Positions 3,425 to 61,586 of a DNA stretch of 64,000 nt are shown in pieces. Positions within the stretch are counted from its first letter, which is position 1, and every line of letters begins with the position of its first letter. The notes under the pieces are model-generated. The model had not been told where the DNA came from and searched no databases. It saw nothing but the letters and a program-made list of their open reading frames with translations. The DNA is from Dehalococcoidia bacterium (GTDB lineage Bacteria > Chloroflexota > Dehalococcoidia > Bin125). The position numbers and the translations under genes are program-made. The stretch lies in assembly GCA_022828105.1 (NCBI GenBank), contig JAJEJC010000001.1:109471-173470 (forward strand), written 5' to 3'.

Positions 3425-3482
3425 TCGGCGCTCCTCTCTCTACGTTGTAGTGGCTCAACAGGGTGTGAATGTTCGTGCGTTC

Positions 3483-4760: not shown

Positions 4761-4790
4761 GATCGCTCCTGGATTCGTGTTTCTCAGTTG

Positions 4791-9175: not shown

Positions 9176-9182
9176 CGTTACG

Positions 9183-17249: not shown

Positions 17250-17288
17250 TGCCCTGCTCCTCCGTCGCTGTGCCTCGCTTGACGATTC

Positions 17289-19598: not shown

Positions 19599-19643
19599 GG
19601 GAGATGCCCTCTTCGAGTGTCGGTCTCTCGTTATGACTGGTCA

Positions 19644-44571: not shown

Positions 44572-44573
44572 CG

Positions 44574-45014: not shown

Positions 45015-45018
45015 TTGT

Positions 45019-45348
45019 TCAGTCCTCCATTCCCTCGGTCAACGATTCTGGAATGTCTCTGGCAGTGTGCAGGACTCGCCAGAGATCGATGTGGTTGTCT
45101 TGCTCTACGTAGAAGGCCATGTACGGAAAGCCGCCAATCGGCCACGCGCGAACGCCGGGTAACCGCTGCCGGCGTCCGATTCGTGGCGATCCAGAGGAGG
45201 GAAGCTGGCCGATATGCAGGTATGCCTGTTCCAAGGCATCAATAAAGGATCGCGCTACGGACGCTGACGCTTCAGCCAGATAGTGTGCGATGATCTGATC
45301 GATGTCGGCCATCGCCCTGTCCCTGGGAACAATTGGCTTCCCGCTCAC
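45019..45348 (-). CDS. parE: type II toxin ParE/RelE family
   Basis: About 100 aa (IDQIIAHYLAEASASVARSFIDALEQAYLHIGQLP...WPIGGFPYMAFYVEQDNHIDLWRVLHTARD). The upstream gene overlaps its start by 4 nt. Confidence 0.72.
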   Translation of the reverse strand: MSGKPIVPRDRAMADIDQIIAHYLAEASASVARSFIDALEQAYLHIGQLPSSGSPRIGRRQRLPGVRAWPIGGFPYMAFYVEQDNHIDLWRVLHTARDIPESLTEGMED

Positions 45349-45584
45349 GACGGTTCATGCTCGCGGACACGCCTACGAAGCTCTTCAAAGTACTCCGCAT
45401 CCGCCACGCCCGCTGGCGGTGAGTTCATACCCTCAATGAGCAGATCACGCAGCTTGTGAGTGTCTTGCTCTCTGCGAATCAGGTCGCGGATGTATTCGCT
45501 GGATGAGGCATAGCCTCGCTCTGCTACCTGCTGATCTACGAAGGACTTTTGTGACTCGGGGAGGGAGACATTCATTGTGCTCAT
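45345..45584 (-). CDS. parD: type II antitoxin ParD (CopG/RHH)
   Basis: MSTMNVSLPESQKSFVDQQVAERGYASSSEYIRDLIRRE is the ParD/COG3609 pattern. The start was chosen at the internal ATG 45584. Confidence 0.72.
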   Translation of the reverse strand: MSTMNVSLPESQKSFVDQQVAERGYASSSEYIRDLIRREQDTHKLRDLLIEGMNSPPAGVADAEYFEELRRRVREHEPS

Positions 45585-45654
45585 TGGATCACTCTCTTGG
45601 CATTGGCAAAGATTGACAATCTTTGCCAAGAACGGTTCATCACAGGGTACATCT

Positions 45655-46827: not shown

Positions 46828-46878
46828 TGGGGGCTCGCAATCAGTTGGGGCCGGGTCGCTCATACGATATCGGCGTGT

Positions 46879-46938
46879 GGGGCAGCCCCCCTCTGCCTTC
46901 GGCATCTCCCCCCGCCTGACGGCGGGGGGAGAGGGGAA
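46879..46938 (+). repeat. GC-rich REP/MITE-like element, canonical copy (GGGGCAGCCCCCCTCTG-GCCTTCGGC-ATCTCCCCCCGCCTGACGGCGGGGGGAGAGGGGAA)
   Basis: Seen directly; located upstream of the enolase-superfamily gene. Confidence 0.85.
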
Positions 46939-47101
46939 TAGGCGGGGACGCGGGAGGGCGGTCCGCGCCGACATCGTGGTCGTCAAGCGGGCACGGGGCG
47001 CTGAAGAGCGCGTCGTAGAGCAGGCGCTGGCGGTCGGTTGGAAAAAACGGCGTTCAGCGTGCAGCTGCTCGACTACGCCCCGCAGCGGCCAATCTGCGGG
47101 A

Positions 47102-47476
47102 TTAGGGCGGTTCATCATCGTCATGGTTGGAGCCGTCCTCGTCTTCCGGTTCGTCGCTGGCGATGCCGAAGTGCGCTTCGGCGCGTGCGATTTCTTCTTC
47201 GGTCGGGGGCGAGCCGTTCTGAATCTCAACGACCCGTTTGTAGCCGGGGCTGATCTCCTCGGGGACTTCATTGGCGTCGTTGTGCAAGGCCGCGCGGGCG
47301 GTGTCGTAGGCGAGCCTGGCTTCGTAGTGGGCCTGGGCGTAGAGACCCTTGATGTGGGCGAGGGCTTTGGTGGCGCTGTGCTGGACGTAGGCGGGGCCGT
47401 TGGTGGCCTGGTGTCGGAGTTGGTCGATGATGGCGTCGTTGGTGAAGGGGAGGGGTGGGTTGGCGGCATGGGACAT
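47102..47476 (-). CDS. hypothetical small protein with an acidic C-terminal tail
   Basis: MSHAANPPLPFTND...ASDEPEDEDGSNHDDDEPP, with GGAG 10 nt upstream of ATG 47476. It lies co-directionally immediately downstream of the nuclease gene. Confidence 0.4.
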   Translation of the reverse strand: MSHAANPPLPFTNDAIIDQLRHQATNGPAYVQHSATKALAHIKGLYAQAHYEARLAYDTARAALHNDANEVPEEISPGYKRVVEIQNGSPPTEEEIARAEAHFGIASDEPEDEDGSNHDDDEPP

Positions 47477-47570
47477 GAGGTGAACTCCTGCTCGTGGTGT
47501 CAGGGGTTCGATCTTATGCACACTGGTGTTCGATGTGGGGTGTGAGGGTGTGGTGGGGTTGACTGGAGGA

Positions 47571-48537
47571 CTATTCATGTGTGATCGAGACGCTGTCGTT
47601 GGCGACGATGATGAAGTTGGTGGAGCCGGGGATGACGCGCCCGTCGCGCTCGGCGTAGGCGAGCCAGCGGACGCCGCTCCACTTCCAGAGCGCGGCGACG
47701 CTGTAATCGGTCAACAGCGAGAAGAGATAGGCCGCGGTCCAATGCGGGGCTGACTCGAGGGACGGAGTGGGGACGGAAGCCGCGGATTCGCCGGTCCGAG
47801 CGCTGCGGAGGGAGATGGGTGCGGTTGTTGCGTCGGAAGACGTTGACGTGGTGGTCTGGCTGTCCTGGTCCACCGTGATGGCGGCGCAATCACGGGCCAG
47901 TGCCGCTTCATTAGCCAGGCGCTCCGCGGGATCGATCAACAGTCCGTAGTTTGCCTTGACCTGGATGGTGATCGTGGCAATGTGCTTGCGCTGGGCGCAA
48001 CTGCCGCCGCTCCACTCAGCGAGATCATGGTCGGATTTGCTGATGTTGGTACTGGCCAGCAGACACCATTGATTGAGCGGATCGTTGGCGAACTGGCGCT
48101 TTTGGGCGGCGGTCCAGGTCGAGGCGCTGGAATCGTAGGCTTCCTTCAGGGCGACGATGTGATCGACGTGTTCGGATGAAGCGCAGCCGAGGCGGGCACG
48201 GGCGGCGCTGGAGTTGTAACTCCAGTTGTCGCGGTCGTAGCCGGTGGAGGAGGTGGGGCCTGTGCCTGAGGATCCGGTCGATGTACCAGGCCAAAGCGGG
48301 TTGGATTCGCAGCCGACGCCGTCTCCGTCGCGGTCGTGTCCATGACCATCGATCACCTTGTAGGGATAGTGGCTGGCGCAGTTGCCGTCAGCCGAGATAT
48401 GCGCTACCCCCCCCCCCCCCACTTAACGATGCGTTTACAAAGGCAGCCATTCCGGCGACGAGCCCGACGCCGACGAGCAATGCAAGACGAACTGTGCGGG
48501 GTCGGCTGATGTTTGCGCGTGCGTGGCTGCTGACCAT
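47571..48537 (-). CDS. secreted Excalibur + DUF1524/HNH-like nuclease, interrupted by a frameshift at a G14 homopolymer
   Basis: The 5' frame (48537-48421) encodes the Sec signal peptide MVSSHARANISRPRTVRLALLVGVGLVAGMAAFVNAS-LSGGGGG and stops at 48388. The +1 frame from 48422 encodes GGGGVAHISADGNCASHYPYKVIDGHGHDRDGDGVGCE (Excalibur DxDxDGxxCE), then EHVDHIVALK...NDPLNQW...NISKSDHD (His-Me finger). Tract 48407-48420. Confidence 0.7.
48407..48420 (-). repeat. homopolymeric tract (G)14 on the coding strand at the signal-peptide/mature-protein junction
   Basis: Fourteen consecutive C on the plus strand. A tract length of 13 or 16 would restore one ORF. Confidence 0.95.
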
Positions 48538-48628
48538 GTTGTGCTCCGGTTGGTTTGAGGGACGTTTAGGGAAGCATCGCACAGGATTGGGTCGTCTGTT
48601 GTGCGGTTGACTTGGGTGCCGCGTGAGC

Positions 48629-48720
48629 GGGGAGCCCCCCTCTGTCCCCTGCCTACGCAGGGGCAGGCTCCTACGGGACATCTCCCCCCGCCTGACAGCG
48701 GGGGGAGAGGGGAAGGGGGG
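48629..48720 (+). repeat. REP/MITE-like element, long variant with nested hairpins (GTCCC[CCCTGC-CTAC-GCAGGG]...GGGAC, then CATCTCCCCCCGCCTGACAGCGGGGGGAGAGGGGAAGGGGGG)
   Basis: Seen directly in the divergent intergenic region between the nuclease gene and the 48749 gene. Confidence 0.85.
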
Positions 48721-48748
48721 ACTGCGGCTAACTGTTAGGGTGCGGGCC

Positions 48749-49228
48749 ATGTCTTTGTTTGAGTCCTCCCAGTGTGAGTTTGAGACTGCGTTTCAGCTTC
48801 TTCCGGAGATCAGCCCGGAGGCGCCGGACTGGGGCGGTCGGTTCCGTCGGGAGATGCCGTCGGTCCCGTCGCCGTACTACGGGGTCAATGTGGTGGACGT
48901 TCGGCGGGAGCACTACGACGCCGTGTTCCAGAACATCCAGGGCCAGGTGCAGGGCGCGGAGCAGCTATTCGGCGGGCGGCTGCATTTCTTTTCGGCGACG
49001 GACTACGGGGAGATCCGGCGCGTCATCTTCATCATCTACTTCGAGAGCTTTCCCGCGACCGAGAGCGTGCTTGAGATGCTGCGCGCAGGCGGAATGGATG
49101 TGGGCGACGACGCGAGCGAGATTCCCGACATCTGGACAGGGTTCGACCTCTGGACCGATTTCACTCGTCTAGCGGAGGGCTATACGTGGTGGATCGCGCC
49201 TGCGATGGCGGAGCACGAGTCGCCGTAG
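48749..49228 (+). CDS. hypothetical cytoplasmic protein (about 160 aa)
   Basis: ATG 48749 (MSLFESSQCEFETAFQLLPEISPEAPDWGGRF...). No family recognised. The track ORF extends upstream into the repeat. Confidence 0.5.
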   Translation: MSLFESSQCEFETAFQLLPEISPEAPDWGGRFRREMPSVPSPYYGVNVVDVRREHYDAVFQNIQGQVQGAEQLFGGRLHFFSATDYGEIRRVIFIIYFESFPATESVLEMLRAGGMDVGDDASEIPDIWTGFDLWTDFTRLAEGYTWWIAPAMAEHESP

Positions 49229-49250
49229 GGTTTCGGTGGCGGAGCGGGAC

Positions 49251-49333
49251 GGGGATGCCCCTTGAGCCTTCGGCATTTCCCGCCGCTGCTCGGGCGGAGA
49301 GGGAGCGGGTCCCTGTGGTCACAGGGACTAGGA
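49251..49333 (+). repeat. degenerate REP/MITE-like copy with CCCTGTGGTCACAGGG hairpin
   Basis: Its GCCTTCGGCAT module is shared with the canonical copies. Confidence 0.6.
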
Positions 49334-49355
49334 GTCGTCCAGCCTAGGCCGGCGT

Positions 49356-49415
49356 GGGGGAGCCCCCCTCTGTCACTACGTGACATCTCCCCCCGCCTTC
49401 GGCGGGGGGAGATGG
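49356..49415 (+). repeat. REP/MITE-like element (GGGGAGCCCCCCTCTG-TCACTACGTGA-CATCTCCCCCCGCCTTCGGCGGGGGGAGATGG)
   Basis: Located between convergent genes (48749 gene and the vWA gene). Confidence 0.85.
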
Positions 49416-49426
49416 AGCCGAGCGGG

Positions 49427-51280
49427 TTAGCCGGCGTAACCGGGGTCTTCGGATTGGCGCTCCTCGGCGACGGCGCCCATGGCCTGGAGGAGCTGGGCGA
49501 AGTCGCGGCCTGCCTGTGAGTCGAGGATGGTCGCCGGGAGATCTCGATATCGCCGGGCGATCTCGTTGAGGTTTTCGGCAGCGAGTTCCATCGTTTCCCG
49601 ACTCAAGCCGTCCTGACCGAACCAGCTATAGCGGTCGGCGGCGAGGGCGACGACTGTGCCGAGGTCGAGCAGGTCGTCGTCGCCGAAGCGCGAGACGGCG
49701 CTGATCATCTCCACCTGCTGGCGGTTCGACTCTTCCGACATCGGCGTCAGCCAGCGCAGCTCGATCTCACCGAGATCTACGACGTCGTCGTTTAGCGCAT
49801 CGCCGGTCAGTTCGACCTCGTAGAAGATGGTCGTGGCCGAGCCCATCGGGATCTCTGCGAACTCCCGGCGGTCCTGTTCAAAGTTGCGGTCGGCGGTGAC
49901 CCGGTTCTCGTAGCCGACGAGACGCCAGCCGGCGACGGCGTGTTCGTCCCAGCGGACCTGGGCGCGGGCCTGGTCGGCGAATGGGACCGAGAGTGCGAGC
50001 CAGTTCTCGCGGCTGAAGGTTGAGCGGGCCTGATCAACGTCCTGTAGATAGCGGTACCAGCCGTTGCCGTACTGGGCGAGCTGTTCGAGCAGCACGTCGT
50101 TGTAGTTGGCGATGCCCACGCCGACCGTGATCAGTCGTAACGGGTTGGAGTCGTTGCGATCTTCGGCCGTGCGCAGAATGGTGAACGGGTCGGTGGCGTC
50201 GACGTTGGCGACGCCGTCGGACATGAGGATCACGTAGTTGTAGGCGTCGGGCCGCTCGCGGCGGATGTCGTCGGCGAGTTCGACGCCGAGGTTGAGTCCG
50301 GCCTGGACATTGGTGGAGTCGAGCGGCGTCAACCGGTCGATGACGCGCTGGATGCCGCGGTCGCCCGGGCGCTCGTGCCTGGCGTGGTCGACGATGCCGT
50401 TGGAGAAGAGCACGACGGCAATGCGGTCGTCGTCGCCGAGCCCGCGGCGGATCGATTCGGCCGCAGCGCGGGCAATCTCGACGCGGTTGCCGTCGCGCAT
50501 GGAACCGGAGGAGTCAAGCACGAGAGTGACGTTGAGCGGGGTGTTGTCGACGAACTCGGGCGCCTGCGTGGCGATGCGGACGAGGTGGAGGTCGTCGTTG
50601 AGCGGGTGCTCGACGATGTCGGCGGTGACGGCGAAGCTGTCATCGACATCGGGACCGTCATAGCGGTAGTTGAAGGCGTTGATCCATTCCTCGGCGCGGA
50701 CCAAGGCGGGATCGATGGCATAGCCGTTCTGGACCCAGTTGAGGGCGAGGAAGTACGAGGTGCGGTCGACGTCGAGGGAGAAGGTGGAGGTGTCGTCCTG
50801 GTCGGTGTCGCGCCAGCCGAGGGTCGGATAGTCCTCGAAGTTGGTCGCACCGGGTCGGGGACGGAGAGTGACCTGCTCCTGTTCGTCCTCCGGGTATGGC
50901 CCGCCGGAGTTGGGGAAGGCGGCGCTGCTATCCTCCTCCGCTTCCTCCTGCATGGCCTGTGCTTGGGCCTGTTCTTGGGCCTGTTCTTGGGCCTGCTGCT
51001 GCATGGCCTGCTCTTGCTGCTGCATGGCCTGCTGTTGTTGCTGCACGGCCTGCTCTTGCTCTTGCTGGTACTGGACATGCTGGGGTTGCTGGGATTCCTG
51101 TTGCTGCGCCTGCGCGACCGCGGTCGGCTGCTCCGCTTGCGGCTCGGCCTGCTGGACGGACTGCCGGGCGTCCTGATCGTCGCTGCACGCCGCGAGCAGG
51201 ATGGCGGCGGCGATGATCGGCAGGGCGATTGCTGCGGCGCTGCGTTTGAGGAATCTGCGGGTTCGCTGGATCGTTGTCAT
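49427..51280 (-). CDS. lipoprotein with a Gln-rich low-complexity linker and a von Willebrand factor A domain (YfbK-like)
   Basis: Signal peptide plus lipobox (ILLAAC) and the MIDAS motif DSSGSM (VTLVLDSSGSMRDGNRVE). The linker is AVQQQQQAMQQQEQAMQQQAQEQAQEQAQAQAMQEE. Confidence 0.8.
   Translation of the reverse strand: MTTIQRTRRFLKRSAAAIALPIIAAAILLAACSDDQDARQSVQQAEPQAEQPTAVAQAQQQESQQPQHVQYQQEQEQAVQQQQQAMQQQEQAMQQQAQEQAQEQAQAQAMQEEAEEDSSAAFPNSGGPYPEDEQEQVTLRPRPGATNFEDYPTLGWRDTDQDDTSTFSLDVDRTSYFLALNWVQNGYAIDPALVRAEEWINAFNYRYDGPDVDDSFAVTADIVEHPLNDDLHLVRIATQAPEFVDNTPLNVTLVLDSSGSMRDGNRVEIARAAAESIRRGLGDDDRIAVVLFSNGIVDHARHERPGDRGIQRVIDRLTPLDSTNVQAGLNLGVELADDIRRERPDAYNYVILMSDGVANVDATDPFTILRTAEDRNDSNPLRLITVGVGIANYNDVLLEQLAQYGNGWYRYLQDVDQARSTFSRENWLALSVPFADQARAQVRWDEHAVAGWRLVGYENRVTADRNFEQDRREFAEIPMGSATTIFYEVELTGDALNDDVVDLGEIELRWLTPMSEESNRQQVEMISAVSRFGDDDLLDLGTVVALAADRYSWFGQDGLSRETMELAAENLNEIARRYRDLPATILDSQAGRDFAQLLQAMGAVAEERQSEDPGYAG
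50950..51110. repeat. in-frame tandem DNA repeats (GGCCTGTTCTTG x3; CTGCATGGCCTGCTCTTGCTG x2) encoding the Q-rich linker
   Basis: Seen directly. Confidence 0.8.
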
Positions 51281-51390
51281 GGTGGCCTCCTGACCGACGT
51301 GTGCAGGGGCGTCTGAGTTGCGACCGTCAGTCGCCCCGTTGGGGAGTTAGACGTCAGAGGGTCGGAGATGGTTCCCGGCGGCTGGTGAGC

Positions 51391-51566
51391 GGGGCGGGGC
51401 GCCCCCTCTGTCACTACGTGACATCTCCCCCCTGGAAGGGGGGAGAGGCAGACGGATGCCCTCCCCCCCCCGGCATGGAGGCGGGGGGAGATGCCGAAGG
51501 CAGACGGATGCCATCTCCCCCCGCCTGACGGCGGGGGGAGACGCCGAAGGCAGAGGGGGTTCGCCT
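51391..51566. repeat. nested array of at least three REP/MITE-like units in alternating orientation
   Basis: GCCCCCTCTGTCACTACGTGACATCTCCCCCCTGGAAGGGGGGAGAGGCAGACGGATGCC...GGAGGCGGGGGGAGATGCCGAAGGCAGACGG...CATCTCCCCCCGCCTGACGGCGGGGGGAGACGCCGAAGGCAGAGGGGG, in the divergent intergenic region between the vWA gene and the ThuA-like gene. Confidence 0.85.
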
Positions 51567-51606
51567 ATCATTGGCGCACTTGCTGACTACTGAGAGAGAG
51601 GGCACC

Positions 51607-52422
51607 ATGGCCAGCGCTCCGACCCGTGTACATGTAGTGACTGGTGGGTTTCCGCCCGGATCGCATGGCGGGCATGACATGGACTTCGCGCGGCTGAAGT
51701 TGCTGGAGATGCTGTACGAGGACGGCAACGTCCGCGCGACGACGGGCAACGACTTCACCGATATGTGGAAGTGGCTGCAGGTGACCGACGTGCTGGTCAC
51801 GTACACGGCCGGTCCGTACGCCGACGATCCGCAGAATGAGATCCTGCGCGACTGGATTGGCAATGGCGGGCACTGGGTTGGCTTGCACGGGACATCGGGC
51901 GGCAAGGCCGCGCGCATGGGCGACGGCAAGCGGCAGATGGTGAAGATGGACCATCATGAGACGCTCGGCGGCTTCTTCATCAACCACCCGCCGATCAAGC
52001 GCTTCACGGTGGACGTCCAGAACGTGAACTCGCCGATCCTTGAGGGTCTGCCGGAGCAGTTCGACGTGATCGACGAGCCGTACATGATTGAGATCACGGA
52101 CCGTCCGAACACGGACATCCTGCTGACGGCGCCGATCGGTCCGGACAACTGGCCCGACTTCGGCTTCGATTACGACGAGGACACGGCGATCGAGGACGAC
52201 GGCGTGACGCGGGTGTTCGGCTACACGCGCGGGATCGGCGAGGGCGGGGTGTGCTATATCGCGCTGGGTCACTGCCACTCGCCGCTGACCAACTCGCAGC
52301 CGTTCGTCGAGGACAACGCGAAGGACGAGAACGGGGACAATCCTCGGACGCTGCGGTTTACGTGGGAGACGGAGGAGTACGCACAGTTGCTGCGGAACAC
52401 GCTGAGCTGGTCGAGGGGCTGA
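51607..52422 (+). CDS. ThuA-like (type-1 glutamine-amidotransferase-like) protein
   Basis: VHVVTGGFPPGSHGGHD...WLQVTDVLVTYTAG...GGHWVGLHG match the ThuA (PF06283) pattern. Start ATG 51607. Confidence 0.78.
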   Translation: MASAPTRVHVVTGGFPPGSHGGHDMDFARLKLLEMLYEDGNVRATTGNDFTDMWKWLQVTDVLVTYTAGPYADDPQNEILRDWIGNGGHWVGLHGTSGGKAARMGDGKRQMVKMDHHETLGGFFINHPPIKRFTVDVQNVNSPILEGLPEQFDVIDEPYMIEITDRPNTDILLTAPIGPDNWPDFGFDYDEDTAIEDDGVTRVFGYTRGIGEGGVCYIALGHCHSPLTNSQPFVEDNAKDENGDNPRTLRFTWETEEYAQLLRNTLSWSRG

Positions 52423-52452
52423 TTGACCGTCAACCGGTCGGCGTTTCTTGTT

Positions 52453-52510
52453 GGGAGCCCCCCTCTGCCTTCGGCATCTCCCCCCGCCTGACGGCGGGAG
52501 GAGAGGGGAA
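52453..52510 (+). repeat. REP/MITE-like element (3' arm mutated to GGCGGGAGGAGAG) followed by two further GC hairpins to about 52612
   Basis: Located between convergent genes (ThuA-like and the alpha/beta hydrolase). Confidence 0.8.
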
Positions 52511-52637
52511 GAAGGCAATAGGCAACTCCCCTTGCGGGGCGCGGGGAGAGCAGTAGGGGGAACCGAGCGGGTCCCCCTGAGCAAGTCAGGGGCAGGCTCT
52601 GCGTGAAGCAGGGACTTGGAGCCGGGCGGTGACTTTG

Positions 52638-53660
52638 CTATTCGCCGATGACGGGTTCGGGGAGGACGTCGAGGAGGGGGGCGAAGGGGTCGAGTTCTTC
52701 TTCGGCGAGGCGGGCGTCGGGTGCGGCGACGGGCGTGACGACCTCCGGGTGCTGGCTGAAGAGGGCGGCGAAGATTGACTCGGCGTGCTCGATGAAGCCG
52801 AGCGAGCCGACGCCGTCGACGTAGATCGGGCGGCAGTCGGGCAGTTCGGAGGCGATGCGGCGGCCCATCTGGATGGGATGGGATTCGTCGAGCATGGCGT
52901 GCCAGAGCATGACCGGGAAGCGAACGTCGCCGAGTTCGAAACCCCAGGGCTCGAGATGGCGGCGGGCTTCGTCGCCGGCTGCGGCGGGTCCCTGGCGGAA
53001 CGCTTCGCGCAGGTCGGTGATGCGGTTGGTGAGCGTGGGCTCGGAGCCGAGGATGACGCCGTCGACGGGGGGCATGCGCTTGATCTGCTCGGCGACGACA
53101 CGGTCAGGCCGCTTCTGGACCGAGCGTCCGTAGCCGCGCATCCAGAGCGAGGCGAGTCGGCGGGACTTGAGGAAGAGGGTGTAGATCAGGCGCCACTCGT
53201 AGGACATGCCTTCGAGCACGTCGCCAGAGTCGATGGCGCCGAGTCCGGAGATGAGGGCGACGCGGTGCAGCCGCTCGGGCATCTTGAGGGCGCAGGCGAG
53301 CGTGTAGGGCAGGCCGGCGGAGATGCCGGCTACGGAGAACTTCTCGAACTCGAGGTAGTCGGCGAGCTGGCGCAGGTCGGCGGGCCAATCGAGGATGGTG
53401 CGCTCGGCCAGCGGGTCGGAGTAGCCGAAGCCGGGCCGCTCGGGCGCAATCAGTCGGACGCCGGCGCGGGCGGCTCCCGGCGCCATGACGGCGGCCGCCA
53501 TGCGTGAGGAAGGGATGCCGTGGTGAAAGAAGAGGGGCTCGCCCCTGGGGTCGCCGTACTCGGCCCAGCTCAACGCTCGGCCATCGGACAGCCGCATCAC
53601 ACTATGTGGCGGCTCGGGGTCGTCGTCGTCGATGCGGCTGGAGGGCTCGGCGATTGTCAT
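52638..53660 (-). CDS. alpha/beta-fold hydrolase
   Basis: Nucleophile elbow GISAG and the general fold pattern. Start ATG 53658-53660 (MTIAEPSS); the track ORF extends into the repeat. Confidence 0.8.
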   Translation of the reverse strand: MTIAEPSSRIDDDDPEPPHSVMRLSDGRALSWAEYGDPRGEPLFFHHGIPSSRMAAAVMAPGAARAGVRLIAPERPGFGYSDPLAERTILDWPADLRQLADYLEFEKFSVAGISAGLPYTLACALKMPERLHRVALISGLGAIDSGDVLEGMSYEWRLIYTLFLKSRRLASLWMRGYGRSVQKRPDRVVAEQIKRMPPVDGVILGSEPTLTNRITDLREAFRQGPAAAGDEARRHLEPWGFELGDVRFPVMLWHAMLDESHPIQMGRRIASELPDCRPIYVDGVGSLGFIEHAESIFAALFSQHPEVVTPVAAPDARLAEEELDPFAPLLDVLPEPVIGE

Positions 53661-53696
53661 GTAGTGAGATCGTATCACTCGCTGCGAAGAGAGCGT

Positions 53697-53756
53697 GGGG
53701 AGCCCCCCTCTGTCTCTACGAGACATCTCCCCCCGCTTCGCGGGGGGAGAGGGAAC
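53697..53756 (+). repeat. REP/MITE-like element (GGGGAGCCCCCCTCTG-TCTCTACGAGA-CATCTCCCCCCGCTTCGCGGGGGGAGAGGGAA)
   Basis: Located between two co-directional genes. Confidence 0.85.
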
Positions 53757-53761
53757 CGGAG

Positions 53762-55510
53762 TTAGTCGGTGGGTTCGGAGACGAGGAGTTCGGCTTCGAC
53801 GTCGTCGGCGAGGTTTTCGATGACGGGGGTCTCGCCCAGGGCTCCGTCCTCGACCTGCATGTCGAAGGCGTCGGCGAAGTAGCGGTAGGACTGATACTGG
53901 TCGCCGTACTTCATGTGGCCGGCGGTGTGGTGGGCGGCGGCCATGAGCAGGGTGTTGCGCGACTCGGACGAGGTGCGGCGGTAGTCCTCCAGCATGCAGA
54001 GGCCGATTTCCTGATTGTGCGGGTCATTGCCCTGCTTGGCGATGCCATTGGCGAGGGTTTCGACCAGCGGTCCGTCGTCGTAGCCGAGGCTGAGGTAGTT
54101 CTCGACCCAGAAGACGGACTGCTCCATGTCGAGCGAGAGCATGGCGTCATTGAGTTCGCTGAGCGCCTGGCCCTGGGAGACCTGCGTCGCTTCGCCGCCC
54201 TTGTCGTAGGCGGCGAAGTAGGTGGCTGCGCCACGGGTCTTGTTGCCCTTGGAGTTGAGCGCCCAGTGCGCGCACTGGTTGATGAAGTTGGCGGCGACGA
54301 AGAGCAGCTTGGTCTTGTGCGGGTGGTCGAAGTGTTCGTAGAACCAGCCGAGGGTGTTGCAGTATTCGTAGCCGTGCTGGGGCATGGAGAAGTTGGCCGG
54401 CAGGCCGCATTCGAGGACGACCCGGGCGGCGGCGATCTGGATGGCGTCGAGGATCGACTTGGGCGAGCGTCCGGCCTTGAGCAGGTCGGAGAGCAGGGCG
54501 ATGTAGGACTCCTGCGGCTCGTTGATGATCGTGCGGATGACCATCTCCGACTCGGGGCCGGAGAGCGGGATCTGGTTGGTGAAGAGTTCCTGGTCGCGGG
54601 TCGACCTGGTGGTCGCGGAGAGAGAGGAACTGGGCGCCTCCTCTTCGAGGTGGTACATCATGATCTGGCAGGCGGACTCGTAGAGCGAGTACCAGCGCGG
54701 GCCGACGGCGATGTCGGGGACGCCGGCGTAGAGGACGTGGTGGGCGTTCTCCCAGCCGATGGCGCGTCCCAGCTCGACGGTGCTGCGGGCGCGGAACGAC
54801 TTGTGTCCGGTGGTGTAGGAGCGGTTCCAGTACATGCGGTCCTGAACGTCGATCAGTCCGGCAAAGACGAGTTGGGCGAGGATTTCCTCGCGGCGCTCGG
54901 GGAACTGCTCCCAGAGGCCGAGGAAGAGGGCGTACTCGTCGTCGACGTGTCCGTACTGGACCATCGTGAGCCAGGTGTTGAGGCCTTCCTCGAGTGAGCC
55001 GTCCCAGCGGGTCGGCTGCTGATCGTCCCAGTGCGCAGCGGGCGGGGCGGGGCCGTCGGGGTACTGCTCGGGGTCGTAGGTGCGGCGCGAGTAATGGCCG
55101 GGCATCCTGCCCTTGAGCTGATTCCAGATGTCGAGCCCGGTGGGCACGTACCAGGCGGTCTGGCTCAGCGGCAGGTGCCGCAGTTCTTCGGAGACGTAGT
55201 TCTGCAGGTTGAGCGTGGCGCGGGAGGAGAGCAGACAGTGGTCGTTGTTGACGAAGCGGACGATGCCCTCGTCGATGCGCTGGTGATAGGGAACGTGGGT
55301 GTAGGGCGCGTGGGCGCGGATCGTCTCTGAGAGGATCTCGGTGGTGGGCCGCCCGTCCTTGATCAGGTCGAATGCCTGCTGCAGGGCGGAGGTGTTGTCG
55401 CGCTCGACGATGGTCTTGCGATAACGGTCGTAGGCGGCGGCGGTCTTGCGGTCCATGTAGGCGGGGGATGCGCCGCTGTCACCGGTGCCGGATGTCTTGT
55501 GCAGGCTCAT
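53762..55510 (-). CDS. hypothetical protein, 583 aa, mainly alpha-helical, no family recognised
   Basis: Start ATG 55508-55510 (MSLHKTSGTGDSGASPAYMDRK...). Long stop-free ORF with coding-like composition. The 60 codons upstream are a translated repeat. Confidence 0.6.
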   Translation of the reverse strand: MSLHKTSGTGDSGASPAYMDRKTAAAYDRYRKTIVERDNTSALQQAFDLIKDGRPTTEILSETIRAHAPYTHVPYHQRIDEGIVRFVNNDHCLLSSRATLNLQNYVSEELRHLPLSQTAWYVPTGLDIWNQLKGRMPGHYSRRTYDPEQYPDGPAPPAAHWDDQQPTRWDGSLEEGLNTWLTMVQYGHVDDEYALFLGLWEQFPERREEILAQLVFAGLIDVQDRMYWNRSYTTGHKSFRARSTVELGRAIGWENAHHVLYAGVPDIAVGPRWYSLYESACQIMMYHLEEEAPSSSLSATTRSTRDQELFTNQIPLSGPESEMVIRTIINEPQESYIALLSDLLKAGRSPKSILDAIQIAAARVVLECGLPANFSMPQHGYEYCNTLGWFYEHFDHPHKTKLLFVAANFINQCAHWALNSKGNKTRGAATYFAAYDKGGEATQVSQGQALSELNDAMLSLDMEQSVFWVENYLSLGYDDGPLVETLANGIAKQGNDPHNQEIGLCMLEDYRRTSSESRNTLLMAAAHHTAGHMKYGDQYQSYRYFADAFDMQVEDGALGETPVIENLADDVEAELLVSEPTD

Positions 55511-55580
55511 GGAGCGCTCCAGGCAGTTGGAACTGTTGAATCTGTTGCGCAGTATAGCGAGCATGGGTACGGGGATCGGT

Positions 55581-55676
55581 GGGGAGCCCTCCTTCAGCCT
55601 TTGGCAGCTTCCCCCCAGAGGGGGGAAGCGGGGGACCAGCCGGCGGCTCTCCTCCAGAGGAGGAAGCGGGGGAACG
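55581..55676 (+). repeat. variant GC-rich double-hairpin element (CTTCCCCCC-AGA-GGGGGGAAG and TCCTCC-AGA-GGAGGA)
   Basis: Shares the 5' GGGGAGCCC box with the main family. It lies in the divergent intergenic region between the 583-aa gene and the DUF1800 gene. Confidence 0.6.
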
Positions 55677-55793
55677 ATCTGCATTTGGCGATGCTGCAAT
55701 GTCCTATATTGCGGCTGTAGAGCGAATGCCGGGGCTTGACAGCCTCTGCGTACTCGCGGACGGTAACTTCTGAAGCGTTTGGAAGGTGATTTG

Positions 55794-57194
55794 ATGTCTG
55801 ACGATCAACGAGCGCTGGTCGCTCACCTGATGCGTCGCGCAGGAGCCGGCGCGACACCGGCCGAACTGGACGCGTTGGCGGAACGGCCGTATGACGAGAT
55901 TGTCGAAGACCTGATCAATCCGCCGCCGACTGCGGACGAGGACGACGATCTGATCTTCCGCTACTTCCCCTCGCTGGCCAACTCGGACACGCCCTGGCCG
56001 TGGAGCGCGCGCTGGATCTACTGGATGGTGAACTCGGAGTCGCCGCTGCGCGAGAAGATGGCGTTGTTCTGGCACCACGTGTTCGCGACGGCCTGGTTCA
56101 AATCGGAGCACGGGCCATCAATGCCGGTGCATGTCCAGATGTTCCGCGACCATGGCCTGGACAACATGCGCGTGCTGCTCGGTGAGCTGTCACGCGACCC
56201 GGCGATGATCTTCTGGCTGGACAACGTCGAGTCGGTCAAGGGCGCGCCGAACGAGAACTACGGGCGCGAGCTGTTGGAACTGTTCTCGATGGGCGTGGGC
56301 AACTACACCGAGGACGACATCAAGGCGGCGGCGTACAGCTTTACGGGCTGGACCTTTGAGCAGCCGATTCCGCTCTATCCGCACGGCGGCTACCCGTCGC
56401 ACTTCGTCTATCGCGAGGATCTGCACGACGACTCGGAGAAGACGTTCCTGGGCCAGACCGGCCAGTGGAACGGCGACGACATCATCGACATCATCGTGCA
56501 GCAGCCGGCGACGGGCCGCTTCATCGGCCGGCACCTGTACAACTTCTTCGTCAAAGACGAGCCGGGCGTGTCGGCCTGGTCAGTGACCGAGCCGGGCAAC
56601 CCGGGGGCGGTCGACGAATTGGCGTCGGCGTTTGCAGAGTCGAACGGCGACCTGCGCGCGGTGATGCGGGTGCTGTTCAACGCCGAATGGTTCAAGCAGG
56701 AGCGCTACGAGCGCGTCAAGTGCCCGGCCGAATGGGTGGCGGGCGCGTACAAGCTGTCGGGCAAGCTGGGCATGCCGCAGCCGGAGATGTGGAATCTGCA
56801 CCTGACGATGGGCGCGATGGGTCAGACGCTGATGGACCCGCCCTCAGTCGAGGGCTGGCACACCGGCAAGGAATGGATCGACGGCGGCACGCTGATGGAG
56901 CGGATCAACTTCGCCTCCAAACTGGTCTCCGATCCGTCGACGCCGGTGGTGCAGGAGCTGGTCAGCCGGCTGCAGGAGCGGGGCGCGAGCAGTCCCGACG
57001 AGCTGGTGGACGCGGCGCTCGATATCGCCGGACCGCTGGCCGTATCGGACAACACGCGCGCGGCGCTGCTCGAAGCGGCGTCGGCGGGCGGCGACCTGTC
57101 CTACGGCAGCGACGAGGATCGCGACGCAGTCGGCGAGCGCGCGGCCCAGGCGCTGCGCCTGGTGATTGCATCGCCCGAGTACCAGTTCGCGTAA
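55794..57194 (+). CDS. DUF1800 family protein
   Basis: The DUF1800 N-terminal signature (LVAHLMRRAGAGATPAEL) runs throughout. Start ATG 55794 with SD GGAAGG. No signal peptide. Confidence 0.85.
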   Translation: MSDDQRALVAHLMRRAGAGATPAELDALAERPYDEIVEDLINPPPTADEDDDLIFRYFPSLANSDTPWPWSARWIYWMVNSESPLREKMALFWHHVFATAWFKSEHGPSMPVHVQMFRDHGLDNMRVLLGELSRDPAMIFWLDNVESVKGAPNENYGRELLELFSMGVGNYTEDDIKAAAYSFTGWTFEQPIPLYPHGGYPSHFVYREDLHDDSEKTFLGQTGQWNGDDIIDIIVQQPATGRFIGRHLYNFFVKDEPGVSAWSVTEPGNPGAVDELASAFAESNGDLRAVMRVLFNAEWFKQERYERVKCPAEWVAGAYKLSGKLGMPQPEMWNLHLTMGAMGQTLMDPPSVEGWHTGKEWIDGGTLMERINFASKLVSDPSTPVVQELVSRLQERGASSPDELVDAALDIAGPLAVSDNTRAALLEAASAGGDLSYGSDEDRDAVGERAAQALRLVIASPEYQFA

Positions 57195-57248
57195 ACCGGA
57201 CATTCAGACGAACACGCCTACGAACACGCAACGGAACGGAACACGTCA

Positions 57249-58403
57249 ATGAGCGGCAACGGACACAAGGATCCCGTCCTGGTCATCGTCCAGCTTTCGG
57301 GCGGGAACGACTTCATGAACACGTTGGTGCCGTACACCAACGGTCACTACTACGACTCGCGGCCGCTGGTCGGCGTGCCCGAGGACGAGGTGATGCCGAT
57401 CAACGAGACGCTAGGGTTCAACCCGGCGGCGGAGCGGCTGAAGGGCATGTACGACGCCGGCGATGTGGCGGTGATCCAGGGGATCGGATATCCGAACTCG
57501 TCGCGGTCGCACTTCCGCGGCATGGACATCATGCACACCTGCGAGCCGGACCGGATCTCGACCGAGGGCTGGGTGGCCAAGCTGATCCAGCGGCTCGACC
57601 CGGAGTCGGCCAATCCGCTGACGGGCGTGAACATCGGACGCGGTCTGCCGCGGGCGATGGCGGCGCCGGGCGTGACGGCGACGTCGGTGGGCGACCTGGA
57701 CAACTACGGTCTGATGCCGGACATCCAGGCGGAAGAGGATCGCAACCGCGACCTGGAGATCTTCAAGCGGATGTACACGCCGGCGATCGGCGCGGGGATG
57801 GTGATGGACTACCTGCGCCAGACCGGGACCGACTCGCTGGCCGGCGCGGACCTGCTGGCCCCGGTGCCGGGGATGTACGAGTCCTCGGTCGAGTACGGCG
57901 CGAATCCGATTGCCAAGGCGCTGCGCGACGTAGCACGGATTCACACGGCCGGTCTGGGCACGCGCGTGTTCTACACGAATCACATCGGTTACGACACGCA
58001 CTCGCACCAGCCGCCGGTGCATCCAGGGCTGCTGCGCGACGTCTCGGGGGCGCTGGACGACTTTATGACCGACCTGCGCGAACACGACGCGGCGGAGGAA
58101 GTCTCGATTCTCGTCTTTACCGAGTTCGGGCGGCGGATGAAGGACAACGGCTCGGGGACCGACCACGGCTCCGGGGGCGGCGCGTTCATCATCGGCGAGC
58201 ACGTCAAGGGCGGCCTCTACGCCGAGTACCCGTCGATTGATCCGAAGGACTGGCTGAACGGCGAAGACCTCTACCACACGATCGACTTCCGCGGCATCTA
58301 CGGCACCATGCTGGAGCAGTGGATGGGCATCGAGCCCGAGGAGATTGTGGTCGGAGATTTCGAGCAGGTCCAGCCGTTCGAGCGGACGATGCTGGCGAAC
58401 TAG
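57249..58403 (+). CDS. DUF1501 family protein (sulfatase/alkaline-phosphatase-like)
   Basis: PVLVIVQLSGGNDFMNTLVPY is the signature DUF1501 start, followed by HFRGMD and GTDHGSGG. An in-frame TAA immediately upstream rules out an N-terminal signal peptide. Confidence 0.85.
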   Translation: MSGNGHKDPVLVIVQLSGGNDFMNTLVPYTNGHYYDSRPLVGVPEDEVMPINETLGFNPAAERLKGMYDAGDVAVIQGIGYPNSSRSHFRGMDIMHTCEPDRISTEGWVAKLIQRLDPESANPLTGVNIGRGLPRAMAAPGVTATSVGDLDNYGLMPDIQAEEDRNRDLEIFKRMYTPAIGAGMVMDYLRQTGTDSLAGADLLAPVPGMYESSVEYGANPIAKALRDVARIHTAGLGTRVFYTNHIGYDTHSHQPPVHPGLLRDVSGALDDFMTDLREHDAAEEVSILVFTEFGRRMKDNGSGTDHGSGGGAFIIGEHVKGGLYAEYPSIDPKDWLNGEDLYHTIDFRGIYGTMLEQWMGIEPEEIVVGDFEQVQPFERTMLAN

Positions 58404-58470
58404 GGGACCCTCACCCTAGCCCTCTCACAGAGGGAGAGGGGATCGGAGCCGCCCATTGCAGGGGCGACAG
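58404..58470 (+). repeat. short GC-rich hairpin element (CCTCTC-ACAGAGG-GAGAGG), weak variant
   Basis: Located between the DUF1501 stop and the NHL start. Confidence 0.4.
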
Positions 58471-58484
58471 ATGGAGGAGTGAAC

Positions 58485-59507
58485 ATGGCGTTTCCACATG
58501 CGTTGCTGCGGGCTGGATATCCGTACGAGCGGGTGCTCGGGATGCGACGAGTAACGACGTTTCCGGTCGACATTGCGATCGGCGACGACCGCATCTATGT
58601 GATCGGCCGGACCGAACTCGGCGTGGGCGGCAATATCCGCATGGTCTCATTGAAGACCGACGACGAGCTCGGCGACGACCTGACGCACGGCGACATGGGC
58701 ACGATGGCGGATACCGGTCACCTCTGGCCGGTCCAGCTCGTGCGCACCGACGACGGCAACCTGCACCTGTTGGACGAGGGTCTGCACAACGTCACGACGT
58801 ACTCGCCCGACGGCGAGAAGCTGGGTCAGTGGGGCGAAGAGGGATCGGGTCCGGGACAGCTCAACCGTCCGTCAGGGCTGGCGTTCGACGCCGAGGGCAA
58901 TGCCTGGGTCGTCGACACGCAGAATCACCGGGTGCAGCAGTTCTCGTCCGAGGGCGAGTACATCGGCGGTTTCGGCGGGCCCGGCGACGGACCGGGTCAG
59001 TTCAACATGCCCTGGGGCATCGCGATTGACGCCGAGGGCGACCTGTACGTCTCGGACTGGCGCAACGACCGCGTTCAGAAGCTGACCACGTCGGGCGAGC
59101 ACATCATGGACTTCGGCACGCGGCCGGGCTACGAGGTGCGCCATCCGAGCGGTCTGGCAGTGGACGAGCACGGCGACCTGTACGTCTGCGAGCGGGACCA
59201 GAACCGGGTCGTGATGTACGACCATCGGGGCCGCTACGTCGAGTCTTTTCTGGGCGCGGCTACGCTGTCGAAGATGGGCCGCGAGTACATCCGCGCGAAT
59301 CAGAAGACGCTGCGTCTGCGCGAGATGACATCGCTGGAGCCGCAGCGGGTGCTGCGCTTCCCGCAGAGCGTGCGCTACCAGGACGGCCGGCTGTACATCT
59401 GCGATTTCGGCAGCCACCGCATCCAGATCTACAAGAAGGACGCGGAGCCGCTGAGCGAGGCGCAGATCATGCCGGAGCTGCGGGCGCCGACGCTGTCGAC
59501 GACGTAG
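58485..59507 (+). CDS. NHL-repeat beta-propeller protein
   Basis: Six NHL-like repeats (LNRPSGLAFDAEGNAWVVDTQNHRVQQF; FNMPWGIAIDAEGDLYVSDWRNDRVQKL; VRHPSGLAVDEHGDLYVCERDQNRVVMY ...). Start ATG 58485 with SD GGAGGAG. No signal peptide. Confidence 0.8.
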   Translation: MAFPHALLRAGYPYERVLGMRRVTTFPVDIAIGDDRIYVIGRTELGVGGNIRMVSLKTDDELGDDLTHGDMGTMADTGHLWPVQLVRTDDGNLHLLDEGLHNVTTYSPDGEKLGQWGEEGSGPGQLNRPSGLAFDAEGNAWVVDTQNHRVQQFSSEGEYIGGFGGPGDGPGQFNMPWGIAIDAEGDLYVSDWRNDRVQKLTTSGEHIMDFGTRPGYEVRHPSGLAVDEHGDLYVCERDQNRVVMYDHRGRYVESFLGAATLSKMGREYIRANQKTLRLREMTSLEPQRVLRFPQSVRYQDGRLYICDFGSHRIQIYKKDAEPLSEAQIMPELRAPTLSTT

Positions 59508-59522
59508 TGAGCCGATTCCCTT

Positions 59523-59572
59523 TCCCCCCGCTTGGCGGGGGGAGATGTCACGGAGTGACAGAGGGGGGCTCC
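59523..59572 (-). repeat. REP/MITE-like element in inverted orientation (CCCCCCGCTTGGCGGGGGGAGATGTCACGGAGTGACAGAGGGGGGCTCC)
   Basis: This is the reverse complement of the canonical architecture, ending 2 nt before the MNT start codon. Confidence 0.85.
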
Positions 59573-59574
59573 GC

Positions 59575-59913
59575 ATGCCCATGGTGTTCGGCTTCGCCAC
59601 ACATCGTCAGCAGCAGCTTGAGGCGGAGTTTCTCAGGATCGCGGGTTCAATGCGTCAGTTGGGCGCGGAACGGTTCTGGTTGGCCGGCGACCTGGCAATG
59701 GATCGCGTGAGGCCGGACTCGGAGCTGGAGTTGCTGGTCGTGCATGAGACCGAGCAGCCGTTTCAGCGGCGTTCCGATTTCTTTCAGACGCACCTGCGTC
59801 CGCAGGTCGGGACGAGGTTCATTGTCTATACACCGGACGAGTTCCTGGAGTTGTGCGAGCAGGACCCGTTGATCGTTGCGATCACGTCGCAGAGCGACGA
59901 GGTGATCGTTTGA
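59575..59913 (+). CDS. minimal nucleotidyltransferase (MNT) domain protein, HEPN/MNT antitoxin-type
   Basis: WLAGDLAMDRVRPDSELELLVV aligns with the GSxxxGxxxxxSDxDLLV motif, with both Asp replaced by Glu. The C-terminal half is typical of MNT. Confidence 0.65.
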   Translation: MPMVFGFATHRQQQLEAEFLRIAGSMRQLGAERFWLAGDLAMDRVRPDSELELLVVHETEQPFQRRSDFFQTHLRPQVGTRFIVYTPDEFLELCEQDPLIVAITSQSDEVIV

Positions 59914-60326
59914 GCGGCGGCGAGCAACAACGGTCGCAGTCGGACCGCTGGTTGCAGCAGTCGCAGCATGATCTCGATGCGGCTCGCCATGCGGCGGCGG
60001 GCGAGTTTCACGCGCTGGCCTGTTTCCTCTGTCAGCAGTCGGCCGAGAAGGCGGTGGCGGGTTACCTGTTCGCGCGCGGGGCGGATCACGTCTGGGGTCA
60101 CGCGCTGGCCGACCTGTGCGAGGACGCGATGCAACTGGACACGTCGTTCGACGTGATCAAGTCGGTGGCGATGCTGTTGGACAAGCATTACCAGCCGACT
60201 CGATATCCAAGCGGCCTGCCTGGCGGCGTGCCGCATCTTGCGTATGATCAGGTTGACTCCGGCCGGGCGATTGATATCGCCGTGGATGTGCTGGAGTTTG
60301 TCAAGACGCGACTGCGCTCCCTGTAA
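59910..60326 (+). CDS. HEPN domain protein (PF05168-like)
   Basis: The HEPN helical pattern includes a conserved ...YQPTRYP segment. It overlaps the MNT stop (TTG at 59910), and an alternative in-frame ATG lies at 59853. Confidence 0.6.
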   Translation: MSGGEQQRSQSDRWLQQSQHDLDAARHAAAGEFHALACFLCQQSAEKAVAGYLFARGADHVWGHALADLCEDAMQLDTSFDVIKSVAMLLDKHYQPTRYPSGLPGGVPHLAYDQVDSGRAIDIAVDVLEFVKTRLRSL

Positions 60327-60351
60327 TGTTGGCGAGGCGGCCGAGCGAGCG

Positions 60352-60645
60352 ATGATCCAGTTTCGACATGTGCGTTTGAACGAGTATCACTGCGCGATGC
60401 TTGAGGACCTGTTGGAATTCCAGGATGCGCCGGAGCGGAAGGTAGTGTTCGTCGAAGAGCGTGTGTCGACACGAGGCTTGATCTTTCAGCCGGCCCTGCG
60501 GCGGCGCGGGTATCACCCCGGCGTACTGGCCAAGTTGGCCGAGCATGGCCTGGTCGATCTGACTCATGTGGGCGAAGATCGGTATCGAGTGTACGTGACT
60601 CCGGTGGGTCGCGACTGTTACGACGACATGTGCGGCCTGACGTGA
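60352..60645 (+). CDS. hypothetical small protein (97 aa)
   Basis: ATG 60352 (MIQFRHVRLNEYHCAMLEDLL...). It overlaps the downstream MutY-like start by 16 nt. Confidence 0.4.
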   Translation: MIQFRHVRLNEYHCAMLEDLLEFQDAPERKVVFVEERVSTRGLIFQPALRRRGYHPGVLAKLAEHGLVDLTHVGEDRYRVYVTPVGRDCYDDMCGLT

Positions 60646-61586
60646 GCGCAGAGTCACGACGGGAGATTGAGCCGGAGCTTCCACGACCGTTGCCGCCGCA
60701 GCGTCTGGGCGCCATCCGGAGACGGCTGTTGCGCTGGTATGACGAGCACGAGCAACCGTTTCCCTGGCGCACGGCGGCCGATCCGTACGCCGCGTTGGTC
60801 GCGGCCGTGTGCGCTCAGCAGACACAGATGTCGCGTGTGTTGCAAATTTACGATCGCTGGATGACCGCGTTTCCCACGATCCACGCCCTGGCTGCGGCGT
60901 CGGACGCCGACGCCTTGCGGGTTTGGGATCGGGCGGGCTATCCAAAGCGTGCGTTGTACCTGCATCAGACGGCGACGATCGTTTGTGAACACTACGGCGG
61001 CTTGCTGCCTCGAACGAGAGACGAGTTGTTAGCGCTGCCCGGAGTCGGCCCGTTTTCCGCGGCGATTGTGCTGAGTTTCGGCTTTGGGATTGACGCCGCA
61101 GCAATCGATACAAACATCGTGAGAGTGTTGGGACGTGTGCTGTTCGGCGACCTGCAACCAGTCCGCGAGACGCCGGCGGCGCAGATACGCTGGGCGGCCG
61201 AGCGATTGCTACCAGATAACCAGGCGGAACGCTGGAATCCGGCGCTGATGGACTTCGGCGCGGCGGTCTGTGCGGCGAAGCCGAGGTGCGCACAGTGCCC
61301 GCTGTCTACGCTTTGCGCGGCCTATCCGAGATTTGCCGGCGGCGAAGAGGCGCAGGCGGCTCGAATGCAGCCTCCGTTTCGAGGGTCGCATCGGGAACTT
61401 CGCGGACTGATCGTCTCACAGTTGCGCACAAGCGAGGAACCGCTGCAGCGCACAGTTGTGATCGCGCGCGTTGCACGATTGGCGCGCGCCAAGCAGTCGC
61501 GAGTGACACTGGCGTTGGACTCAGTGATCGCCGACGGGCTGGTTCATGATTGTGGCGACATACTCTATCTCGGTTCCGGCGACTAG
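60630..61586 (+). CDS. HhH-GPD base-excision glycosylase, MutY/Nth family with [4Fe-4S] motif; no NUDIX-like C-terminal domain
   Basis: VCAQQTQMSRV...LPGVGPFSAAIV (HhH-GPD) and CAAKPRCAQCPLSTLC (Cx6Cx2Cx5C). The C-terminal 90 aa are unrelated to the MutY 8-oxoG domain. GTG start, uncertain. Confidence 0.78.
   Translation: MRPDVSAESRREIEPELPRPLPPQRLGAIRRRLLRWYDEHEQPFPWRTAADPYAALVAAVCAQQTQMSRVLQIYDRWMTAFPTIHALAAASDADALRVWDRAGYPKRALYLHQTATIVCEHYGGLLPRTRDELLALPGVGPFSAAIVLSFGFGIDAAAIDTNIVRVLGRVLFGDLQPVRETPAAQIRWAAERLLPDNQAERWNPALMDFGAAVCAAKPRCAQCPLSTLCAAYPRFAGGEEAQAARMQPPFRGSHRELRGLIVSQLRTSEEPLQRTVVIARVARLARAKQSRVTLALDSVIADGLVHDCGDILYLGSGD

Follow-up and report, generated by a model that had tools for sequence, protein, structure and literature searches.

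Our results indicate that a 64,000-nucleotide (nt) stretch of a Dehalococcoidia genome (GenBank assembly GCA_022828105.1, contig JAJEJC010000001.1, positions 109,471 to 173,470 of the forward strand; hereafter the window, within which all positions are counted) carries a DUF1800/DUF1501 gene pair without export signals, directly followed by a gene for a signal-less NHL beta-propeller protein. This leaderless trio is real and represents a well-populated form of a system that is known but uncharacterised; no description of it was found in the literature searched. The interpretation that we favour, to which we give somewhat better than an even chance, is that of a derived cytoplasmic DUF1800/DUF1501 system with the NHL propeller as a fixed third component. 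A first-pass annotation of the window, made by a model from the sequence, had described an uncharacterised conserved gene pair, and this description stands: the literature found assigns no function to DUF1501 or DUF1800, describing only twin-arginine translocation (Tat) motifs, gene neighbourhoods and proteome lists, and NCBIfam has a name for neither.

Three open reading frames (ORFs) of the same strand occupy positions 55794-59507, in the order DUF1800 (55794-57194, + strand, 466 residues), DUF1501 (57249-58403, + strand, 384 residues) and NHL propeller (58485-59507, + strand, 340 residues). The DUF1800 protein matches Pfam PF08811 over model positions 1-418 of 419 (349.8 bits against a cut-off of 26.1, E 3e-104). 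The DUF1501 protein matches PF07394 at 79.6 bits (cut-off 27, E 3e-22) with only residues 231-360 aligned, and the NHL protein matches PF01436 with four scored repeats (111 bits, E 7e-33). A Shine-Dalgarno sequence, GGAAGGTGA, precedes the ATG of DUF1800 at 55794, and the reading frame could be extended upstream by five codons at most, to an alternative TTG start at 55779, with an in-frame TAA at 55764. In the case of the NHL gene, ATG 58485 is more likely to be the start than the alternative GTG 58479, because the ATG has GGAGGA 6 nt ahead of it and relatives conserve the resulting MAFPHALLR terminus. The three genes probably form one operon, often extended by a downstream pair of MNT-like and HEPN genes. 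A scan of 55400-60700 found no promoter or terminator motifs, which is compatible with a single transcript and no proof of it.

The first-pass annotation had described the proteins as lacking export signals, and this is confirmed: signal peptides and transmembrane segments are missing from all three, and the sequence ahead of each start leaves no space for a leader. Neither an RRxFL motif nor a hydrophobic stretch occurs within 240 nt upstream of any of the three starts, in all three frames, and the maximum Kyte-Doolittle mean over 19 residues (0.76-1.03 for the three proteins) predicts no transmembrane segment. DUF1501 begins 9 residues ahead of its first strand, and the AHLxRRAGxG sequence at the N-terminus of DUF1800 is part of the domain, not a Tat motif. 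In-frame stops are found 54 nt upstream of the DUF1501 start and 27 nt upstream of the DUF1800 start. The TAA previously noted 55 nt ahead of DUF1501 does exclude a leader, but it is the stop codon of DUF1800 itself (57192-57194). The idea that the missing leader is an artefact, with a Tat signal hidden by a misassigned start or by a frameshift in the sequencing, is effectively excluded by these comparisons and has next to no chance of being correct: besides the stops and the lack of an h-region or RR motif in any upstream frame, identical short N-termini occur across 80 independent assemblies, including many complete long-read chromosomes, and the DUF1800-DUF1501 spacer is only 9-20 nt long in some relatives. 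Such a sequencing error, which the annotation itself had named as the case against its reading, was looked for and no evidence supporting it was found.

The absence of a leader is not a property of the lineage. A VWA/YfbK-like lipoprotein of 617 residues, encoded 4.5 kb upstream on the opposite strand (49427-51280, - strand), begins MTTIQRTRRFLKRSAAAIALPIIAAAILLAAC, in which a canonical TRRFLK twin-arginine motif leads into an h-region and then a lipobox (LLAAC). Because of this TRRFLK motif and lipobox, the host can be said to use Tat-type leaders, and the leaderless state of DUF1501 is therefore not due to a lineage-wide lack of such signals.

A HMMER search of 1.84 billion cluster representatives (clusters at 50% identity, E<=1e-3) returned 12,240 representatives related to DUF1501, with full-length homology. 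The leader state was surveyed in the 141 best representatives whose match reaches the N-terminus: 125 of them are extended at the N-terminus by 20 residues or more, and in 118 of these 125 an RR motif is followed by a hydrophobic stretch (for example MSISRRDLLKSGAAVVAVGLA), bearing out the statement that DUF1501 proteins almost always carry a Tat signal. The remaining 16 lack such an extension, being either fragments or the nearest relatives of the window protein (41-67% identity). Those nearest relatives, taken over the full range of 41-98% identity, begin at the core without an RR leader, and the 120 closest clusters at 90% identity are all 383-393 residues long. The best match, at 98%, is VXQT01000027. 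The genomes nearest to the window are Chloroflexota/Dehalococcoidia assembled from metagenomes; many are complete long-read chromosomes, and many are apparently sponge-derived, judging from isolate names. In long DUF1501 representatives the additional sequence is either unassigned or a type IX secretion sorting tail, with no domain fusion that hints at function.

A phylogeny had been suggested as a check on whether leaderless DUF1501 forms belong together, and in a neighbour-joining tree of 140 full-length sequences those related to the window protein do so. The group comprises the window protein, six Chloroflexota homologues and the representatives P0242, P0244, P0267 and P0364, and its sister is a Tat-bearing sequence. 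The remaining 'leaderless' tips are truncated gene calls and the distant P0277. To judge from tree and N-termini, the window DUF1501 thus belongs to a distinct leaderless group.

The NHL gene is the feature that sets this group apart at the level of the locus. A set of 82 leaderless loci was assembled from 80 GTDB species genomes and two metagenomes. In 80 of the 82 the NHL gene directly follows DUF1501, the other two contigs ending too early, so that the signal-less NHL protein noted after the pair has turned out to be a real, conserved partner. Within the genome set the trio is kept down to 64% DUF1501 and 43% NHL identity. The case at 64% DUF1501 identity is in Candidatus Poribacteria (locus L079, positions 4581-8294 of the 5.1-Mb chromosome OY282374.1), and the occurrence in another phylum suggests lateral transfer. 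The trio is also present in the distant leaderless loci L083 (52% DUF1501, 37% NHL) and L086 (41% and 31%), and the short contig with P0244 has an NHL-like fragment downstream. An adjacent NHL gene was found at none of 13 loci with a Tat-bearing DUF1501, which were used for comparison. This adjacency of NHL to a leaderless DUF1800/DUF1501 pair is the main new result, and it is not mentioned in the literature found.

The NHL protein is a predicted propeller of the classical TRIM71/PknD kind, its sequence being strongly similar to the NHL domains of both. Six blade motifs are readable, at residues 37, 93, ~140, 187, 232 and 303, and Pfam scores four repeats. In NCBIfam there is a sub-threshold match to ScyF, probably reflecting repeat similarity only. 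The subfamily is marked by conserved features at both ends, LRxGYPY..GMRRVT near the N-terminus and a tail at the C-terminus, and by an insertion at about residues 257-290, all of which could be docking surfaces. The other genes flanking the trio change beyond close relatives. ThuA, an alpha/beta hydrolase and a 582-residue protein were each considered as partners and rejected, all three being kept in close relatives only: the ThuA-like gene is retained only at 86% DUF1501 identity or above, and the 582-residue gene (53762-~55510, - strand) only in relatives at least 74% identical for that protein, which is divergently encoded from DUF1800 and has no Pfam or NCBIfam match. Of the two partners proposed for a check of genomic context, NHL is therefore upheld and ThuA is not.

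The DUF1800 protein is mostly helical and has no signal peptide. Its AlphaFold2 model (pLDDT 81) found no relative among solved structures, and no Pfam link from DUF1800 to PSD1 or PSCyt was seen at E<=10. DUF1800 lies upstream of DUF1501 in 77 of the 82 leaderless loci, and the other five lack the upstream flank. In the 13 Tat-type loci the DUF1800 N-terminus was readable in 11. At least six of these partners of a Tat-bearing DUF1501 are themselves signal-less, 432-482 residues long and starting at the HLLRRAGFG core (L081, L087, Miltoncostaea, Chondrinema, Persicobacter and Methylobacterium), that of Azospirillum is ambiguous, and four longer proteobacterial proteins of 546-612 residues have Sec or lipoprotein signals of their own (Vibrio, Sphingomonas, Ralstonia and Agarilytica). 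To judge from these termini, a start at the core is normal for the type of about 430-480 residues, and only the leaderless DUF1501 is unusual. The first-pass annotation, which saw both proteins as unusually leaderless, was thus right about DUF1501 and overstated the case for DUF1800.

Some DUF1800 proteins are exported on signals of their own, which places the working site of DUF1800 with that of DUF1501 on one side of the membrane. The presence of a signal-less DUF1800 beside a Tat-bearing DUF1501 suggests a complex of the two, and by analogy the signal-less protein most likely crosses the membrane bound to the folded, Tat-bearing DUF1501. Such hitchhiking through the Tat pathway is established for subunits of hydrogenase and dimethyl sulfoxide (DMSO) reductase, as in Escherichia coli hydrogenase-2 (HybO/HybC) and DmsAB. 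In these complexes, as in the exported DUF1501/DUF1800 pairs, one subunit has a signal and the partner often has none; the window locus differs in having a signal on neither subunit, and for DUF1800 co-export is proposed by analogy. If DUF1800 does hitchhike, the loss of one leader would therefore relocate both proteins.

The DUF1501 protein has an alkaline-phosphatase-superfamily fold, with GGxD, SHF, DxH and (T/S)DHG motifs. The closest solved folds are nucleotide pyrophosphatases/phosphodiesterases (NPP), at 10-15% identity in structural alignments, whereas sequence searches found no solved relative of either DUF1501 or DUF1800. In Pfam, neither Sulfatase nor Alk_phosphatase matches the window protein, and Phosphodiest does not match it even at E<=10. 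Across leaderless and Tat-bearing forms S87, H88, D249, H251, D305 and H306 are invariant and D21 is conserved in at least 95%. Also conserved in both are G18, G19, F89, E292, F293, G294, R295, G303, G307, D346 and R348. Ser87 (57507) lies, in the predicted secondary structure, where helix 88-97 begins, the place that the nucleophile takes in the superfamily, and the order of Asp and His residues follows that of the metal ligands in NPP and alkaline phosphatases. S87, with H88, is the putative nucleophile, and D21, D249, H251, D305 and H306 are putative metal ligands. The sequences HFRGMD (residues 88-93) and GTDHG (residues 303-307), singled out earlier for inspection of the metal site, are both present, and the putative metal-site and nucleophile residues are retained. 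Only six positions separate leaderless from Tat-bearing DUF1501, and the chemistry is probably unchanged because none of them falls within the conserved motifs. A sulfatase formylglycine motif was considered for C98-E-P-D-R (57540-57554) and rejected as a chance fit. C98 is at the far end of the helix, off the nucleophile position, and orthologues do not conserve R102. Within the Chloroflexota subgroup C-x-P is maintained but the Arg is not, and in Tat-type relatives Ala replaces the Cys.

In the proposed mechanism, DUF1501 would be the catalytic subunit, a hydrolase of the alkaline-phosphatase superfamily that depends on metals for phosphoryl or sulfuryl transfer, with Ser87 as nucleophile and D21, D249, H251, D305 and H306 binding the metals. 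DUF1800 would be its obligate helical partner, a subunit that may be non-catalytic or have some other role. In exported relatives the signal-less DUF1800 would cross the membrane bound to the Tat-bearing DUF1501; with both signals absent, as here, the complex would stay in the cytoplasm. The NHL protein would most likely serve to recognise the substrate, which would be imported or made in the cell, or to carry out a second step on it. More speculatively, the trio may be a cytoplasmic three-subunit enzyme of marine and sponge-associated Chloroflexota and of one Poribacteria genome, relocated from a periplasmic, Tat-exported ancestor, equipped with a propeller subunit and acting on an imported, unusual phosphorylated or sulfated substrate or, as a variant, on nucleotides together with the MNT-like and HEPN proteins; we regard this fuller scenario as possible and rather doubtful.

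Several observations weigh against the favoured reading of a cytoplasmic trio. Bootstrap support for the leaderless group is moderate (11 of 20), and P0277, which is leaderless at 37% identity and has a DUF1800 gene, lies outside the tree group and has no adjacent NHL gene. The calls of export signals were made by regular expression and hydropathy heuristics, and it is from absent signals that we infer a cytoplasmic location. A physical complex of the three proteins is a proposal, the hydrolytic chemistry of DUF1501 is likewise inferred, and the metal ligands were assigned by motif order and predicted secondary structure, not by superposition. Because the NHL protein belongs with the binding propellers of the TRIM/PknD type and shows no recognisable catalytic site, the role proposed for it is a guess, and no neighbouring gene hinting at a substrate was seen across the loci of the group.

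Other explanations have to be weighed as well. One is that the trio is still exported, by means of an unlinked Tat-bearing protein or by a non-classical route, and works outside the cytoplasm. Hitchhiking within the family and the Tat-type leaders of the host both speak for it; however, all three proteins are without a leader, the leaderless state is stable over more than 80 genomes, one of Poribacteria included, and besides the equally signal-less MNT-like/HEPN pair no other gene of the neighbourhood is conserved across the group, which makes continued export quite improbable. The genes might instead be neighbours by inherited order only, the NHL protein having no functional link to DUF1800 and DUF1501. 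Most of the 82 loci come from a single class, Dehalococcoidia, so that shared ancestry inflates the counts, and the MNT-like/HEPN genes are also kept in 59-61 loci without an obvious functional link. Against this, the trio persists while the other flanks change, down to the 31-37% NHL identity of L083 and L086 and into another phylum, NHL is absent at 13 of 13 Tat-type loci, and conserved extensions at the N- and C-termini are peculiar to the NHL subfamily. We consider mere gene order an unlikely explanation, if a shade less so than continued export.

The MNT-like and HEPN genes raise a further alternative, in which they and the trio form a five-gene module that processes, for example, nucleotides or nucleotide-derived signals, and DUF1501 is not a metabolite enzyme. 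Both genes lie downstream of NHL in the same orientation, with short gaps and a start/stop overlap at TTGA; 59-61 of the 82 loci have kept them, and the nearest solved folds of DUF1501 are those of nucleotide-acting enzymes. About a quarter of the loci, however, have the trio without the two genes, thousands of exported relatives share the catalytic core without having such neighbours, and the MNT motif is degenerate; a five-gene module appears about as improbable as continued export of the trio.

The favoured cytoplasmic trio can be set beside several known systems. DUF1800/DUF1501 pairs have been noted beside bacterial chitin synthases (PMC5122149). The Tat-exported pairs of Proteobacteria, Bacteroidota, Actinomycetota and Thermus resemble the window locus in families, gene order, short spacers and DUF1501 residues, whereas the window DUF1501 is without the Tat leader, has the NHL gene appended and is 31-41% identical to Tat-bearing representatives. 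In Planctomycetes and Verrucomicrobia, DUF1501 occurs with PSCyt/PSD1 (DUF1549/DUF1553) modules (PMC3542564), which likewise join a catalytic-type DUF1501 protein to a large uncharacterised partner. In the window, however, the partner is DUF1800 and there are no cytochrome-c motif domains, while the planctomycete and verrucomicrobial proteins have signal peptides or Tat motifs and no NHL. The likeness to NPP and to PafA/PhoK-type alkaline phosphatases is one of fold, DUF1501 being only 9-15% identical to them. The NPP family has a Thr nucleophile and a two-zinc site, whereas DUF1501 has a putative Ser in S-H-F and a separate DUF1800 partner. Type I sulfatases conserve a C/S-x-P-x-R formylglycine motif where the nucleophile sits, and DUF1501 does not.

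DUF1501 is a very large family of uncharacterised function within the alkaline-phosphatase superfamily, with the 12,240 clusters found here, and a naturally signal-less member should be easier to express and purify than Tat-exported forms. The locus may therefore offer a tractable entry to this family, together with two hypotheses: that DUF1800 and DUF1501 form a complex, which family-wide would be exported together, and that NHL is a third subunit.

The spacers between the genes hold several repeats. The DUF1800-DUF1501 spacer (57195-57248, + strand, 54 nt) contains the direct repeat ACGAACACGC twice, at 57208-57217 and 57220-57229. The repeats that had been pointed out earlier are thus present, but they are not conserved: ACGAACACGC was rejected as a conserved regulatory element since, among 77 relatives, only L005 shares it with the window, and a repeat search reported no direct-repeat family. 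Just before the ATG of DUF1501, AACGGAACGGAAC (57230-57242) is conserved in close relatives, replacing the GGAGG Shine-Dalgarno sequence that distant relatives have at this position. Spacer length varies widely among relatives, from 9 nt to over 1000 nt. Because DUF1800 and DUF1501 here share a frame and are separated by a single TAA, their readthrough or fusion was also considered; it was rejected, as the frame is shared in only 25 of 77 relatives, the chance rate.

The DUF1501-NHL spacer contains a GC-rich hairpin resembling repetitive extragenic palindromes (REP), CCCTAGCCCTCT/AGAGGGAGAGGG, at 58414-58440, and many relatives have this type of element in the DUF1800-DUF1501 spacer. Hairpins of this CCCTCTCCCAGAGGGAGAGGG type were seen at 58414-58440 and 55607-55673 and in spacers of L001, L003 and L007-L039. 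As the spacer that they occupy differs from relative to relative, their behaviour is like that of extragenic palindromes that are mobile or have been inserted repeatedly. The region between the divergent 582-residue gene and DUF1800 (55511-55793) is the presumed promoter site, in which none was detected; it holds a GC hairpin with a perfect 10-bp stem (55607-55629) and two copies of GGAAGCGGGGGA.

Downstream of NHL, the protein at the MNT position (59545-59913, + strand, 122 residues) is an optional neighbour present in 59 of the 82 loci. No family matches it, and where MNT has GS...DxD its degenerate motif reads GD...ELE. The HEPN-domain protein of the TT1696/TM0613 type (59910-60326, + strand; 77 bits, and 4.5e-21 to TT1696) is likewise optional, in 61 of 82 loci, and its TTG start overlaps the upstream stop (TTGA). 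Where kept after NHL, the pair is 40-89% identical to that of the window, and its gene order is unusually stable for a toxin-antitoxin-like pair.

In the wider window, GC skew on the + strand climbs from about 0.02 to 0.1-0.19 past 44 kb (~44000-56000), and few convincing ORFs are found at 44.8-49.4 kb. Related peptides are encoded by several ORFs on either strand in the second half of the window, ISPRLTAGGEG at about 46.9, 48.7 and 52.5 kb and a looser ISPRQAGGKG at about 59.5 kb. At ~2200-19600 on the - strand, a run of ORFs resembles a cell-division and cell-wall (dcw) cluster, with FtsZ/FtsA-like and Mur-like N-termini; this reading, made from N-terminal sequences only, would imply peptidoglycan synthesis by the host.

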